This document shows positions 57,312 to 64,000 of a stretch of 64,000 bases of DNA, one piece after another. How positions within the stretch are numbered: the stretch's first letter is position 1; each line of letters begins with the position of its first letter. Source of the DNA: Bacilli bacterium (GTDB lineage: Bacteria > Bacillota_I > Bacilli_A > ML615J-28 > CAG-313). The notes under the pieces were generated by a model. The model made no database searches and was not told where the DNA came from. It saw only the letters and a list, made by a program, of their open reading frames with translations. Both the position numbers and the translations under genes were made by a program. The stretch is from positions 2,626-66,625 of the forward strand of contig JBGVCU010000034.1 in the NCBI GenBank assembly GCA_045119035.1, read 5' to 3'.

Positions 57312-58022
57312 TTAAATAAAAACTAAAAAATCTTCTTGTTTTGTCTTATTTAAATATTTTTTAAGTATATATCTATTTTTGTGAGTAATTGCATTTGCTG
57401 GGCAATTTGTTTTACACTTTAAACATCTAATACATTTCTTGTTAAATTTATGATTTTTTATCCCCTCATATATACATTCTTTTTCACATTTTCCACAATT
57501 AATGCATTTAGTTAAATCAATATCCATTTTAACAAGCATTCTACTACGTAGATCCTTTAATAATGGAGCAAATATATTTTTGTAGCTTTTTTTAATATTT
57601 ATTTCTTTCAAATTATTATTATTAATTTTTTCTATTACTAAATCTAATTTACTTAAAGAAGTTACTTCTTTTTCATTTAAGTAAGAATGATTCATTGGCA
57701 CATATGCAGCTGCTATTATTTTCCCATTTTTGTAGTATTTTTTAAAATCAAATAAAGCATTTCCATAACACATTTTTCCATATGTTGCTATTGGTATTAT
57801 GTATTTTGATTTTATATTCTTAATAATTTTTTTTATAAAATCTGGTACAGATTGACAATAAACAGGAAAAACTATAACAGTTGTTTCATAAATTTCATTT
57901 ATTATAATATTTCTTTCTTTAGGGTTATTAAGATCATATATATTCCATGATAATTTTTCTTTAAAGTATTCAGCTACTAATTTACTTTGATTTGTGTTTG
58001 AATAATATATAATACAATTCAT
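57312..58022 (-). CDS. EFR1-family flavodoxin/ferredoxin fusion
   Basis: IYYSNTNQS, VFPVY, CINCGKCEKEC and CIRCLKCKTNCP. Confidence 0.85.
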   Translation of the reverse strand: MNCIIYYSNTNQSKLVAEYFKEKLSWNIYDLNNPKERNIIINEIYETTVIVFPVYCQSVPDFIKKIIKNIKSKYIIPIATYGKMCYGNALFDFKKYYKNGKIIAAAYVPMNHSYLNEKEVTSLSKLDLVIEKINNNNLKEINIKKSYKNIFAPLLKDLRSRMLVKMDIDLTKCINCGKCEKECIYEGIKNHKFNKKCIRCLKCKTNCPANAITHKNRYILKKYLNKTKQEDFLVFI

Positions 58023-59413
58023 TAGTTAAAATATTCTTTCATTATTTTACATTCTGGAATTTCATCTAAAGAAAACCCTAATTCTTCATTAAGTTCATTC
58101 ATAGCAGCATCTTTTGAAAGATTTTTATCTCTACTTGCTAAAGATATTTCTAAAGCACTAAAAGGAATCATTGAACTTTCCATATCATAGAAACGTTTAA
58201 ATTGAGTATGTTCTTTACAACGCTCAATTTTACAACTAGTATGAAGTCCTTTTCCTGTCCAATCAGGAGAAACCCAACCACACTCTTTTTCAATTACTTC
58301 TTTTATTTTTAACCAATCATATTTTCCACCACAAATTTCATTAAAGTCAACTTGAACAAAAGCGGGAATATTACCACTCCAAGATGAAGATTTTATTGCT
58401 TTTTTAAGTGGTTTTACAATACCGGGAACTTCATGGATTGCAATTGTTATATTATCTACTAAAGTATTACGATAACTTGATTTTTTTAAAAAGAAATTAG
58501 TTCCGTTCGCAAGTTGTTTCATAGTAGATAAAGTATGAAATTGACCTTTTTTAAGTGGTTTATGTAGTGTTAAAATTCTTCCTGTATTAATTAAAATATT
58601 AAGAAATTTATTCTTATCAAATGAATAAACAATTTTTGGTGCCATATGATTATAATATAAACCAAGTAGTTGAACTGGCTCATTACCTGCAATAAAATAA
58701 GGAACTTTATTTATAACTAATTCTGGATAAAATAAAACATAAGCTAAAGATGGACAAGCACATGTATTACCGCTTATTTTATATAATTTTTTATAAATAG
58801 TTCTTAAATCGTTATTAGATACTTTTCTTGTTATAAATTCAACATTATCAAGCATTCTTTTAGCTCCTTCAATACTTTTTCTAGAGCTATCAGACATATA
58901 AGGTATTTCCCAAGTTAAGGCTAGTACTCTTAAATTTAGCTGTTTAGATAAATAATATAATAAGTATGTTGAATCTTTTCCTCCTGTATAAAAAACAGCC
59001 ACATCAAATCTTGATTTTTTTGATTTAGGAAAAGTGTTCATGATCGGAACAACACTTTTCAAATGACTTGTTTCTTCTTTTGTTTGACACATCGGACATT
59101 TTCCATCTTTATCAAATTCAAGTCCAGGTATTATATAGTCATTTGCGACACAAGAATTACAAAATTTTGCTTCATTTAAGTTTTTAGGAATTATTCTTTT
59201 TTCATTTTCTTTTACAATTTGAGTTCCAATTAAATCTTTTAATATATATAATTCCTCATCAGTTAAAGATTTTGGCAAGTTAACTATGATATCTTTTTGT
59301 TTTTTATTAATATGTTTTTCATTTTTAAACATATTTTCTTTATTTCTTAATCCATAGTATTTTAATCTATTGTTTTCTATTTTCCATCTAGATTGTAAAA
59401 CATATATATCCAT
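58022..59413 (-). CDS. PP-loop (N-type ATP pyrophosphatase) protein, N-acetyl-sugar amidotransferase-like
   Basis: CNSC...FDKDGKCPMC, FYTGGKDST, CAC, LHTSC. Confidence 0.75.
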   Translation of the reverse strand: MDIYVLQSRWKIENNRLKYYGLRNKENMFKNEKHINKKQKDIIVNLPKSLTDEELYILKDLIGTQIVKENEKRIIPKNLNEAKFCNSCVANDYIIPGLEFDKDGKCPMCQTKEETSHLKSVVPIMNTFPKSKKSRFDVAVFYTGGKDSTYLLYYLSKQLNLRVLALTWEIPYMSDSSRKSIEGAKRMLDNVEFITRKVSNNDLRTIYKKLYKISGNTCACPSLAYVLFYPELVINKVPYFIAGNEPVQLLGLYYNHMAPKIVYSFDKNKFLNILINTGRILTLHKPLKKGQFHTLSTMKQLANGTNFFLKKSSYRNTLVDNITIAIHEVPGIVKPLKKAIKSSSWSGNIPAFVQVDFNEICGGKYDWLKIKEVIEKECGWVSPDWTGKGLHTSCKIERCKEHTQFKRFYDMESSMIPFSALEISLASRDKNLSKDAAMNELNEELGFSLDEIPECKIMKEYFN

Positions 59414-59427
59414 AAATTTTAACTCCT

Positions 59428-59652
59428 TTACTTTTTTATTCTTAGTCCAATTATTTCTTTTTCATTATAGTTATAAATAAAGAATGGACATTGTCCTGCT
59501 ATTTGAATAGTATATATAACTTCACCTTCTTCATTTAAGAAAGATTCATATATAAAACCAAAATATAGTTCATTTTTATATCTAAAATTTACATAGTCAT
59601 CTAATTTATATTTTGCGTCTTTTACTTGTTTTCTTTTCTTTTTAAACAACAT
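59428..59652 (-). CDS. Small hypothetical protein (SH3/KOW-like barrel possible)
   Basis: GAAGGA RBS before MLFKK; YKLDDYVNF...GFI...YTI pattern. Confidence 0.6.
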   Translation of the reverse strand: MLFKKKRKQVKDAKYKLDDYVNFRYKNELYFGFIYESFLNEEGEVIYTIQIAGQCPFFIYNYNEKEIIGLRIKK

Positions 59653-59739
59653 AGGGTTTCCTTCAATTAAATTCATACTTTATTATACCATATATTAAAT
59701 AAAAAAGACTGTTAATATATATATTAACAGTCATATTTG

Positions 59740-61483: not shown

Positions 61484-61503
61484 CCTCTCTTTATATTTAT
61501 ATC

Positions 61504-62484
61504 TTATCTAGTTTTAGTTGCTTTATTCTTTAATTCTTCAGGAATAATAATACCTGCGTTATTAGCAGAAGTAAGATTTATTTCTAAATCGTTATTAGAA
61601 TAATATCCAACAGGTAAATCACCTGCTTTTGTTCCGTTTAAAACTTTAACACCCATTTCACCTGTCATTCTTCCAAGTTCAGAATAGTTAACACTTCCAA
61701 CAGTAATAGTTGCGCCTTTGTCTAAAGCACTTGCTTCTCCAACAATTGTTGGAATGTGAGCTAGGTAACATGCATTAATAACAACATTTGCACTAGCAAC
61801 AACTTTGTTATCTGTTGGAATATACATTGCACTAATACCAGATGCAATTAAAGATTCTGTAACTGATTTAATTTCAGTATCATTATTAATAGCTTGAGCT
61901 ACAACTTCAATATTTATACTTTGAGCAGCTTCACGAGCCATTGTTAATTGAATTTCTGAATTATGTTCACCAGCCGTATATATAAATCCAACTTTAGTTG
62001 CACTTGGATCAAGTTCTTTAACTAATTTAATTTGATCAGCAACAGGGTTAATATCTGAAGTACCTGAAACATTTCCACCTGGATTTTGAGCATTGGAAAT
62101 AATACCAGATGCAACAGGATCAGTTACAGCAGTAAATAGTACTGGTGTATCAATTTCTTGTTTTTCTAATTCTTGAACAAGAACTTGAGCAACAGGAGTA
62201 GCTATGGCAAAAATTAAATCACTTTTACTAACAGCTGTTCTAACAGATGATACTACAGTAGATGAATCTGCATTACAATTATATATACTAATATGAATGT
62301 TTTCTCCATCAACAAATCCTCCAGCTTTAAGACCATCAATAATTCCTTGTTCTGCATCATCTAGTGGTGCATCAGTAACGTATTTAATAATAGCTACTTC
62401 TTTTAAATCTTCTTTACAACTTGTACATAAACATAATGCTGATAATACAACAACCATTAAACAAAATAATTTTCCTAATTTCAT
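61504..62484 (-). CDS. ABC substrate-binding lipoprotein of the Trp/Tyr (ABC_sub_bind) family
   Basis: Lipobox CTSC, AIATP, VLFTAVTDPV.SG, NVSGTSD, YIPTDN. Confidence 0.9.
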   Translation of the reverse strand: MKLGKLFCLMVVVLSALCLCTSCKEDLKEVAIIKYVTDAPLDDAEQGIIDGLKAGGFVDGENIHISIYNCNADSSTVVSSVRTAVSKSDLIFAIATPVAQVLVQELEKQEIDTPVLFTAVTDPVASGIISNAQNPGGNVSGTSDINPVADQIKLVKELDPSATKVGFIYTAGEHNSEIQLTMAREAAQSINIEVVAQAINNDTEIKSVTESLIASGISAMYIPTDNKVVASANVVINACYLAHIPTIVGEASALDKGATITVGSVNYSELGRMTGEMGVKVLNGTKAGDLPVGYYSNNDLEINLTSANNAGIIIPEELKNKATKTR

Positions 62485-62516
62485 AATTTCCTCCCATATA
62501 AATTAATTTATTTAAT

Positions 62517-62546
62517 AAAAAAAGTTACTACATTTCTGTAATAACT
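62517..62546 (-). terminator. Attenuator terminator in the ABC operon leader
   Basis: AGTTATTACA-gaaa-TGTAGTAACT followed by a U-run, about 30 nt before the start codon. Confidence 0.85.
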
Positions 62547-62637
62547 AATAATACAATATATATATATTAGTAGTTATCACAAATATTATATGTTTGCAAT
62601 AACCACTTACCACTTTCCTGTCGAAAAGACCAAGGGA

Positions 62638-62700
62638 TTATTCAAACATCCTTGGAAAGTAATAATAATAAAAGCTAGCAGAAAAAATATTTGTTAACAT
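62638..62700 (-). CDS. Tyr/Phe-rich leader peptide MLTNIFSASFYYYYFPRMFE
   Basis: AAAGGAG RBS, ATG at 62700, TAA at 62640-62638, six consecutive aromatic codons. Confidence 0.85.
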   Translation of the reverse strand: MLTNIFSASFYYYYFPRMFE

Positions 62701-62800
62701 ATTTTATAATCTCCTTTCTTTCACTTACTAAAATTATACTCTTCCTTTTCGTATATGGCAAATTATATACACTTTTTTTAATTTAAATTAATGATTTTTA

Positions 62801-63586
62801 TTAAATAGCTGATCTTTTTTTATAATTAATATAATAGAATGTTCCATAGAATATTAAAATATAAATTAAAAATAACACTACTACAGATAATGGATATATT
62901 ATTTTATTTCCGTTAACAATATTATAAACAATATCATACGGAGTTCCATCACCTTGCATTAAGAACATATAGTTTGTATCGAAAATAATGTTTGCTATAT
63001 ATGCAAGAATACAGAATGCAGTTAAAATAGAGAATGTAATAATAACATTTTTCTTTTTCATACTACATAATCCTGATATTACAATATATAAAGATGCAAA
63101 TCCTGAAATACAGTGAGTAATTCCTGATACTACATTTGTAAAAGATAATACTGGATAACTTCCATAGTTATTACCTGCTAAATATGTTCCTAAGATTGCG
63201 CCTAATAACCCAAAAATGAAAACAAAGTCTAATGAAGCTTCCTTAACTCGTCCCTTACTAAAAGCAGCCAATGGAATTGTAATAAGTTGAATACTACATA
63301 AGAATAATGGCAAATTACTTAAAATCGGATCAAAAGCCTTTTCTGTTAAACAGAATATTATTATTTTAAATATTTCAAATCCATCTATTAAAATAGCAGC
63401 AAATATTAGCACTTTGTTTTTTTCAGATAATTCTTTTTTTCTATTTTTAATACCAAAGTAAATCGCTAGTATTGTCATAATAACTACAAGTGCAGTTACA
63501 AATGTTAAATGTTGCCAAGAAAAATAACCTTCTGGTTCTTTTTGATATCCACCAAATCCAAAAAATTCTTTAATTATATCTATCAT
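62801..63586 (-). CDS. YwaF/TMEM164-family integral membrane protein
   Basis: LPLFLCS, H motifs, TNYMFL; start MIDII after GGAG. Confidence 0.8.
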   Translation of the reverse strand: MIDIIKEFFGFGGYQKEPEGYFSWQHLTFVTALVVIMTILAIYFGIKNRKKELSEKNKVLIFAAILIDGFEIFKIIIFCLTEKAFDPILSNLPLFLCSIQLITIPLAAFSKGRVKEASLDFVFIFGLLGAILGTYLAGNNYGSYPVLSFTNVVSGITHCISGFASLYIVISGLCSMKKKNVIITFSILTAFCILAYIANIIFDTNYMFLMQGDGTPYDIVYNIVNGNKIIYPLSVVVLFLIYILIFYGTFYYINYKKRSAI

Positions 63587-63650
63587 ATAGTGCTCCATAA
63601 ATTTATATATATTTATATAACACCACAAATACATAGTTTTATTTAAACAT

Positions 63651-63688
63651 ATTAAAACACAACCCAAAAATTGGGTTGTGTTTAATTT
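63651..63688 (-). terminator. Intrinsic terminator
   Basis: AAACACAACCCAA-aaa-TTGGGTTGTGTTT hairpin. Confidence 0.8.
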
Positions 63689-64000
63689 TATCCAACTAAA
63701 TTATATGTATTATTAACTTTAACACCATCATCAGTAGTTAAAGATAATAAACATCCAGCCCAGAATGTTTTATCATTCCAGTTACAAATAGCAAATTCTA
63801 CAGTTACTTCTTGCCCTGAATAGTCTTTTGCCCAGCTATATTGACCAGCATCAGAACAATATAAAGTTAATGTTTGTCCATTTGCATCTTTAAATTGAAT
63901 TGAAGAGAAATATTGAGTTTCTGTTATTACAATTGTACCTCTTAAGATATATACTTGACTTGCAATATCATCATTTACATTTAAAGCTTTAATATCATCA
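63688..64000 (-). CDS. C-terminal fragment of a gene entering from the right (OB-fold-like surface domain)
   Basis: Open frame DDIKALNV...ILRGTIV...KDANGQTLTLY...NLVG* ending at TAA 63690-63688. Confidence 0.7.
   Translation of the reverse strand, partial: DDIKALNVNDDIASQVYILRGTIVITETQYFSSIQFKDANGQTLTLYCSDAGQYSWAKDYSGQEVTVEFAICNWNDKTFWAGCLLSLTTDDGVKVNNTYNLVG

Follow-up and report, generated by a model that had tools for sequence, protein, structure and literature searches.

A putative tyrosine-codon leader-peptide attenuator ahead of an ABC importer operon in uncultured gut Bacilli

Introduction

In the classical leader-peptide attenuators of Proteobacteria (trpL, pheL-pheA, pheM-pheST, hisL), a translated short open reading frame (ORF) with a run of regulatory codons is followed by mutually exclusive hairpins and an intrinsic terminator, and the position of the ribosome chooses the fold, with the his leader setting A:B/C:D/E:F hairpins against a B:C/D:E alternative. 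Here we analyze a 64,000-nucleotide (nt) stretch of a Bacilli bacterium genome (assembly GCA_045119035.1, contig JBGVCU010000034.1, positions 2,626 to 66,625 of the forward strand; hereafter the window, with positions counted from its first letter), whose minus strand carries the same set of elements ahead of the genes of a PF04392-type ABC importer. Comparing this leader with its relatives, we conclude that it is very probably a ribosome-mediated transcription attenuator that reports charged tRNA-Tyr, and probably also tRNA-Phe, and that controls a tyrosine-type importer. As in the classical systems, the fold would be chosen by ribosome position, and the multi-hairpin relay resembles that of the his leader. 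Unlike them, the leader has no similarity to theirs in sequence or Rfam models, its signal would be Tyr with Phe, its target is an importer rather than a biosynthetic operon or synthetase, its relay uses a single octamer four times, the terminating ribosome would cover the strand that holds the stop codon, and the ribosome-free RNA is predicted to read through rather than to terminate.

An initial annotation of this DNA, made from its letters alone, had treated leader peptides with amino-acid runs as an enterobacterial mechanism, which holds for the classical cases but not exclusively, as Firmicutes examples are in print (PMC2965389, PMC9413887, PMC5794164, PMC8632094). These include His leaders (PMC2965389, PMC9413887) and the S. 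aureus ilv-leu Leu-rich attenuator peptide (PMC5794164), which, as those sources present them, share with our leader ribosome-mediated attenuation in low-G+C Gram-positives beside T-boxes, but differ in amino acid, in genes (biosynthesis or hisS paralogues) and in having no sequence in common with it. The closest described candidate is uORFC-13-1 (Brewer et al. 2021, RNA Biol, PMC8632094), reported from Acholeplasma and environmental sequences, exclusively upstream of aroF, with 24 representatives, and described as a U run coding for at least one Phe, with a promoter, ribosome-binding site, start codon and a terminator directly downstream. Compared by description only, it resembles our leader in its related lineage, its candidate upstream ORF (uORF) with promoter and ribosome-binding site, its Phe codon, its adjacent terminator and its link to aromatic amino acids, whereas our leader has a Tyr-dominated run and lies ahead of PF04392 genes in 42 of 44 cases and of an aro operon in only 2. 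Looking for an aromatic uORF beside aroF (DAHP synthase), we found none that was convincing in 29 loci with flanks of only 1.5 kb (5 hits, all unrelated).

Two further systems concern the importer itself. TrpXYZ of S. suis, reported to be T-box controlled (PMC9382623), belongs to the same transporter family and follows the same logic, with uptake induced at low charged tRNA, but there a tRNA-binding RNA does the sensing in place of a translated uORF, and the amino acid concerned is Trp; our binding protein, moreover, falls below the TrpX cut-off. CD0873 of C. difficile (6HNI, PMC6816091) is, by sequence alone, a homologue of the window protein with matching Glu and Tyr residues. Among published accounts of Tyr-codon leader peptides and of Acholeplasma, Mollicutes or Tenericutes attenuators, we found no description of this leader, uORFC-13-1 being the closest; the mechanism appears to be a classical one, in a leader family that is apparently kept across a bacterial order and for which we found no earlier description.

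Results

A short aromatic leader ORF is followed by a chain of complementary strands

All elements that the initial annotation had named (ribosome-binding site, 20-codon uORF, FYYYYF run, stems and terminator) are present on the minus strand, to which the coordinates below refer. A Shine-Dalgarno sequence, AAAGGAG (62717-62711), precedes the leader-peptide uORF MLTNIFSASFYYYYFPRMFE, which has 20 codons plus TAA (62700-62638; ATG at 62700, TAA at 62640-62638) and contains the regulatory run TTT TAT TAT TAT TAC TTT (F YYYY F; 62673-62656), the proposed stall site. Next come CCAAGG (62655-62650), the 5′ arm of a hairpin enclosing the uORF end (H0), and strand 1, ATGTTTGAATAATC (62649-62636), which comprises the last uORF codons and the stop TAA; CCTTGG (62635-62630), the 3′ arm of H0, pairs with CCAAGG across the stop codon and is followed directly by a conserved U tract, TCTTTTC (62629-62623). 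The element GGAAAGTGG (62618-62610) has complementarity to two stretches, the U tract and the last part of the codon run (TTACTTTCC). Beyond it lie strand 2, AGTGGTTATTGCAAACAT (62607-62590), made of octamer copy 1 (GTTATTGC) plus CAAACAT; strand 3, TTTGTGATAACTACT (62583-62569), with copy 2 (GTGATAAC); strand 4, TAGTTATTACA (62547-62537), with copy 3 (GTTATTAC); and strand 5 (62532-62516), with copy 4 (GTAGTAAC; TGTAGTAACT at 62532-62523) and a T7 run. Strand 2 can pair with strand 1 or strand 3, strand 3 forms an anti-antiterminator with strand 2 or an antiterminator with strand 4, and strand 4, the 3′ arm of that antiterminator, is also the 5′ arm of an intrinsic terminator with strand 5. 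Strands 2-5 are therefore four near-identical octamers of alternating sense (GTTATTAC, GTAATAAC, GTTATTAC, GTAATAAC) and then a U run, with the T7 run 32 nt upstream of the binding-protein start (ATG 62484).

A TAT run alone would be weak evidence in DNA of 21-29% G+C, as found in the window, and it is the comparison with relatives that lifts the finding above chance. Another 106 short ORFs with amino-acid runs were listed in the same genome, which we take to be mostly chance products of A+T-rich DNA.

The uORF is conserved, and its conserved peptide feature is the aromatic run

An aromatic-run uORF is kept upstream of orthologues of the importer genes. Among a first set of 30 loci, one was cut by a contig end, another (L028) has octamers and terminator with no aromatic uORF, and the other 28 include the window, such that a uORF with Shine-Dalgarno and ATG (19-25 codons, 3-8 Tyr, 1-5 Phe, 0 Trp) occurs in the window and in 27 of the 28 evaluable orthologous loci. 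We then used 35 non-redundant leaders as a wider set, with dinucleotide shuffles of the same 80 nt as controls: the frame with in-frame Shine-Dalgarno and ATG was open to the Tyr/Phe run in 33 of them versus 1.4% of shuffles, the remaining 2 having an in-frame ATG with a weaker Shine-Dalgarno, and the other two frames were closed by stops in 31/33 and 29/33 leaders. A short ORF with ribosome-binding site and start codon thus lies inside the 5′ leader of the window and of 33 of the 35 relatives, where its length is 18-25 codons. Summed over the 35 leaders, the run codons are TAT (114), TAC (60), TTT (57) and TTC (4), making 174 Tyr and 61 Phe codons beside 19 others. The N-terminal part, by contrast, ranges from 6 to 17 codons and is conserved neither in length nor in sequence. 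One leader copy (L100, G056:C7:27499-27698), whose downstream gene is cut by a contig end, has a run that reads FYCAYCICF, with several Tyr codons changed to Cys (TAT to TGT).

A translated uORF could also sense something other than the supply of Tyr-tRNA, through nascent-peptide arrest (at the conserved Y/F-Pro-Arg) or a general slowing of translation, as at bmrB-bmrCD and vmlR, whose leaders sense antibiotics in Firmicutes. Most of our peptides do finish the run with F/Y-P-R or P-S, and B. subtilis uORF attenuators ahead of ABC transporter genes are reported to respond to ribosome-targeting drugs (PMC4191407, PMC9226507). We nevertheless regard this explanation as very unlikely. The nucleotides CCAAG directly 3′ of the run persist although they are read in either of two frames (P-R/S in most leaders, Q-E or Q-V in several, including L007, L025, L026 and L029), and they are therefore conserved as an RNA element rather than as a peptide motif, with Pro-Arg as its by-product. 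The sole conserved feature of the peptide is its run of 4-9 aromatic codons, and the regulated genes encode an importer with Tyr-binding residues or, in 2 of 44 cases, aroB.

Covariation connects the uORF end to the terminator

In a model-fitted alignment of 49 distinct rows, a kind of alignment that leans towards its model, 96.2% of cells of the off-state structure were paired and 15 of its 26 pairs changed on both sides, a level attained by none of 500 shuffles, compared with 30-69% paired in slid controls of the off-state helices. Both sides changed in 8 of 10 pairs of the copy 1:copy 2 helix and in 6 of 10 pairs of the terminator helix (copy 3:copy 4; 97.9% paired), while the antiterminator (copy 2:copy 3; 97.4% of cells paired) had 3 of 10 pairs changed on both sides, including one that is AU in 42 rows and GC in 4. 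The 2:3 and 3:4 stems and the terminator of the initial annotation are therefore kept and covarying in relatives. Each of the 28 leaders of the first set that have the uORF also has a terminator hairpin with its T run, re-picked by hand in 3 of them.

What that annotation overlooked is the helix between strands 1 and 2, which would link the uORF to the switch. In the window it pairs ATGTTTGAATAATC (62649-62636) with GGTTATTGCAAACAT (62604-62590), at -9.6 kcal/mol, and appears in the minimum free energy (MFE) fold; in general, strand 1 is the stretch between CCAAG and CTTGG, and its partner is copy 1 plus the next 12 nt. Over 36 representatives, cognate strand 1:2 duplexes had a mean of -12.66 kcal/mol versus -6.84 (standard deviation 0.43) for permuted partners, with none of 20000 permutations as low. 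Of 34 leaders, 26 have their stop codon within paired strand 1, and the other 8 have it 1-8 nt further on; counted from the first paired base of strand 1, the start of the last aromatic codon is 10 nt upstream in the median (range 8-16). A ribosome extends about this far ahead of its A site. Because strands are shared, the helices exclude one another, so that antiterminator and terminator are mutually exclusive and the alternatives chain back through copies 2:3 and strands 1:2 to the 3′ end of the uORF. With the 1:2 helix identified, a stem set can be assigned to the stalled state, a choice that the initial annotation had left open.

The arms of H0, CCAAG and CTTGG, are paired in 47 of 47 scorable rows and almost invariant, and TTTT occurs within 9 nt past CTTGG in 46 of 47 leaders. 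A NusG-type pause word (TTNTTT) after the CCAAG:CTTGG hairpin was considered and dropped, as it is present in 4 of 47 leaders only.

Conserved elements that look unpaired and have no assigned role, namely the U tract (46/47) and GGAAAG, invite a different explanation, in which attenuation depends on a bound protein or ligand (as in riboswitches, or in the manner of TRAP, HutP or PyrR) and the ORF is incidental. Binding would then take place either at the UAU/UAC triplets or at two conserved elements, CUUGG-CUUUUU and GGAAAGU, and another family of the same class does have a HutP-family gene and UAG repeats before an orthologous transporter. We hold this to be highly improbable, given that the frame with Shine-Dalgarno and ATG is open in 33 of 35 leaders while the other frames are closed, that changes within the run stay Tyr or Phe while the N-terminal part varies in length and sequence, that the stop codon lies within a covarying strand, and that Rfam gives no match to the leader and the operon in the window has no conserved regulator gene next to it.

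A stalled ribosome would lead to read-through

The sequence comparison establishes a conserved translatable uORF, its codon run, each relay helix and the link to the downstream genes. Comparison of the relatives agrees with the Tyr(/Phe) leader-peptide attenuator that had been proposed from the window, through the conserved uORF, the covarying stems and the Tyr-type residues of the binding protein, and we infer from it that the uORF is translated, as well as an order of folding, a direction of regulation and a response to amino acids. In this proposal, five strands follow the codon run, the first of them being the 3′ end of the uORF with its stop. When Tyr is plentiful, the ribosome would reach the stop codon and cover strand 1, which would leave strand 2 free when strand 3 emerges; 2:3 would form, strand 4 would be left for strand 5, and the 4:5 terminator would halt transcription. 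When charged tRNA-Tyr is scarce, the ribosome would stall on the YYYY(F) run, covering CCAAG with its edge at about the start of strand 1, such that 1:2 would form, strands 3 and 4 would pair as the antiterminator, and the operon would be transcribed. The CCAAG:CTTGG hairpin and U tract may serve as a pause site, or as a lock on strand 1 after ribosome release.

The 246-nt leader folds to an MFE of -59.7 versus -40.1 kcal/mol for dinucleotide shuffles (z = -4.5; better than 200 of 200). In transcripts cut just past strand 2, the median pairing of copy 1 was 0.75 with a ribosome on the run and 0.50 with a ribosome on the stop, a gap that exceeded 0.2 in 22 of 34 leaders and was reversed in none. 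Folding modeled as strand 2 emerges thus supports the proposed direction.

A T-box is available in the genome and appears unused here

We scanned 61500-64000 with Rfam 15 and found no family inside the leader (6 weak matches, E up to 10, elsewhere in that region), no match to the T-box model (RF00230) at E up to 10, and no match of the leader to the leader-peptide families (Trp, Phe, His, Leu, Thr, leu/phe leaders); Rfam models run on the loci of five relatives gave nothing except one unrelated weak match elsewhere. The absence of a T-box motif noted in the initial annotation therefore stood, and for its remark that other members of this transporter family are under T-box control, the S. suis TrpX paper (PMC9382623) gives backing in the case of Trp, as far as that source goes. 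The same T-box model gave 10 matches elsewhere in the same genome (50-136 bits), among them loci that precede tyrS (71.1 bits; G000:C42:57537-59001, L141) and pheS (84.9 bits; C42:46187-47498), both below the Rfam cut-off of 93 with E <= 1e-15. The tyrS T-box carries the GGUGGUACCGCG box, and its specifier-loop segment, from an alignment read by eye, is GAAUUACC, which contains UAC. The T-box route thus appears to be available in this genome, yet unused for the importer operon.

UAC is the usual Tyr specifier, which would fit a T-box, degenerate or atypical in form, whose UAC/UAU triplets read tRNA-Tyr directly. Although the transporter family is reported under T-box control in streptococci (PMC9382623), the chance that this leader is such a T-box is negligible, as a search that finds 10 elsewhere, including tyrS, returns nothing here and the antiterminator is a plain octamer duplex with no bulge; as far as sequence can tell, T-box identity is refuted.

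The operon encodes an importer with tyrosine-type residues

The first gene downstream of the leader encodes a substrate-binding lipoprotein of 326 amino acids (62484-61504; PF04392, 202 bits) that is predicted to bind tyrosine, followed in the same operon by a permease (61483-60524; BPD_transp_2, 95 bits) and an ATPase (60531-59740; ABC_tran, 106 bits). The best solved relative of the binding protein is 6HNI (CD0873 of C. difficile, E = 8e-50), which is reported to bind tyrosine, with Glu-263 bonding the Tyr hydroxyl and Tyr-279 excluding Trp (PMC6816091). In a HMMER alignment to 6HNI, Glu250 and Tyr267 of our protein align with these two, placing Glu and Tyr at both specificity positions, and they are invariant in 44 of 44 orthologues. 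By the TrpX equivalog model of NCBIfam (NF041285), the protein scores 223.8 bits against a cut-off of 390, as a homologue and not an equivalog. The Tyr substrate that had been predicted from the codon run therefore fits the binding protein, and the codon cluster matches the amino acid of the regulated genes, by the Tyr-binding residues and by aroB in 2 of 44 cases.

The genome (96.7% complete) encodes chorismate synthase and DAHP synthase in an aro operon, gave no match to prephenate dehydratase, and matched prephenate dehydrogenase at 24.3 bits, under the cut-off of 26.5. That aro operon has a short plain leader with no such attenuator.

On the promoter side, the leader gap is bounded by a TMEM164-family gene (63667-62801, minus strand), and a promoter-like site, TTGCCA-17-TATAAT (62761-62733; 11 of 12 consensus matches), lies upstream of the uORF. 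Promoter-like sites show no enrichment in the region (7 found versus 6.2 expected), so that the promoter call for the window is based on position only; in the related loci inspected by eye, a TATAAT-type box lies about 35-45 nt upstream of the uORF. Many orthologous loci (e.g., L002, L003, L011, L016, L021) have a conserved, palindrome-like TGTAAGCGTTTTC or TGTAAACGTTTAC upstream of the -35 box, absent from the window, which we take to resemble a cre or LacI-family operator; if it is a cre-type operator, catabolite control would be added to the operon. Downstream of the transporter genes lie three more minus-strand ORFs (57312-59676), encoding 82 amino acids with no family, 463 amino acids weakly resembling N-acetyl sugar amidotransferase (67 bits, under cut-off) and a 236-amino-acid 4Fe-4S protein.

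The leader co-occurs with the binding-protein gene across the order

A degenerate motif pattern returned 25 records among the genomes of 185,579 species, titled as Bacilli (11), Acholeplasmataceae (3), Acholeplasmatales (2), Bacillota (2), Bacteroidales (2) and, one each, Mollicutes, Staphylococcaceae, Coprobacillus, Bacillales and Alphaproteobacteria. All 25 carry a Tyr-run uORF and, within the limits of their contigs, a following ORF whose N-terminus is of lipoprotein type. A covariance model (R1; 170 positions, 26 pairs) built on the off-state structure found one copy in the genome of the window (89 bits) and 56 copies in 55 of 106 genomes of the order. Orthologues of the binding protein occur in 35 of 61 related genomes (35-54% identity), and the leader is present in 31 of 34 relatives with the binding protein versus 0 of 26 relatives that lack it.

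The gene downstream of the leader copies is PF04392 in 42 of 44 cases and aroB (3-dehydroquinate synthase) in the other 2, both from one genus. A search of genome contigs gave only 2 records of the aro-type variant. At the two aroB loci (L099, G042:C3; L102, G077:C107), a diverged leader with uORFs ...MFYYYYFNPRKSRV and MSVTMNMFYFYDYFNPRKGRV stands ahead of aroB in an aro operon; in G042, a DAHP synthase gene lies about 3.6 kb downstream of that leader, on the same strand and contig, and the binding-protein gene of this genome is L028, the locus with octamers and terminator and no aromatic uORF.

Other wirings of the same importer family were seen outside this leader family. At loci of another family of the same class (L143-L148 and L151; e.g., L144:932-1500), a HutP-family gene (PF09021, 150.5 bits) lies upstream of the orthologous binding-protein gene and is followed by TAGAATGGTAGAATGGTAG-type repeats (UAG every 8 nt) and then a G+C-richer terminator, an arrangement that looks like protein-mediated antitermination. 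At L149, the second of two tandem binding-protein genes is preceded by a Shine-Dalgarno sequence, the uORF MNNMLKTKNFFFRLTRI with three Phe codons and a G+C-rich terminator, pointing to a paralogue with a leader peptide of Phe type in a further family.

Four bovine-gut metatranscriptome runs contained low-depth contigs that hold parts of the operon and cover 62333-62698 piecewise; such contigs show neither transcript ends nor levels, may include DNA carry-over, and mean nothing where parts are uncovered, so they are at most a weak sign of transcription in the region. One of them (62554-62698) has 6 extra bases, ATATAT, at 62555, where an AT repeat lies in the antiterminator loop that joins strands 3 and 4; the repeat is slippery, and the insertion probably reflects a difference between strains.

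Discussion

A number of observations weigh against a ribosome-mediated Tyr attenuator, or at least against parts of it. Phe makes up a quarter of the run codons, such that Tyr-only specificity appears unsupported, and CCAAG:CTTGG hardly varies, so that its pairing has little covariation behind it. Pairing of GGAAAG with the codon run is likewise not established by the duplex energies, which gain only slightly from cognate partners (-6.75 versus -5.49 non-cognate; -6.25 versus -5.26 for the U tract). The window's terminator hairpin is weak (-7.8 kcal/mol, then TTTTTTT), and a consensus terminator scan of the region called none; with 2 G-C pairs in its stem, it escaped a scan that demands G+C. 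One of the metatranscriptome contigs (62420-62567) also crosses the terminator into the gene.

The folding order is the other point of strain. The initial annotation had proposed folding with ribosome-masked segments, which was informative for the truncated transcripts above but flat for whole leaders: equilibrium folding with ribosome-sized masks failed to separate the states, as the terminator was favored in 20 of 28 leaders both without a ribosome and with one at the stop, and in 17 of 28 when the ribosome was stalled on the last aromatic codon, and a second variant of the masking was equally flat. We rejected equilibrium masking as a test because copies 1 and 3 are near-identical and strand 3 is split between both, and this same identity means that the relay model assumes an order of folding. 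The ribosome-free leader is furthermore predicted in its read-through form, hence termination would need active translation, a delicate requirement in Bacilli, given reports that their RNA polymerase runs ahead of the ribosomes.

With these points set beside the conserved uORF, the covarying relay and the Tyr-type importer, we still think a Tyr/Phe leader-peptide attenuator the reading that fits best. On balance, we also favor a broader view, in which the leader represents an undescribed, order-wide RNA family with a Tyr uORF and a five-strand octamer relay beside a tyrS T-box, ribosome-coupled attenuation would be routine in this lineage of Bacilli, and at least four sensors (T-box, Tyr leader peptide, Phe leader peptide and HutP-type protein) would have been coupled to the importer family in independent events.

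If so, the leader adds a well-supported leader-peptide attenuator to the low-G+C Gram-positives, in which T-boxes dominate and transcription is thought to outrun translation, and it could serve as a natural test case for transcription-translation coupling there. Being a compact family with clear covariation and a repeated-octamer design, it suits reporter and in-vitro work and is a candidate for a curated RNA family. For the organisms, uncultured gut Bacilli with small genomes in which the final steps of Tyr and Phe synthesis appear to be missing, it gives an ABC importer both a substrate (tyrosine, perhaps also phenylalanine) and a regulatory logic, and it would mean that two different machines in one genome read the same charged-tRNA (Tyr) signal.

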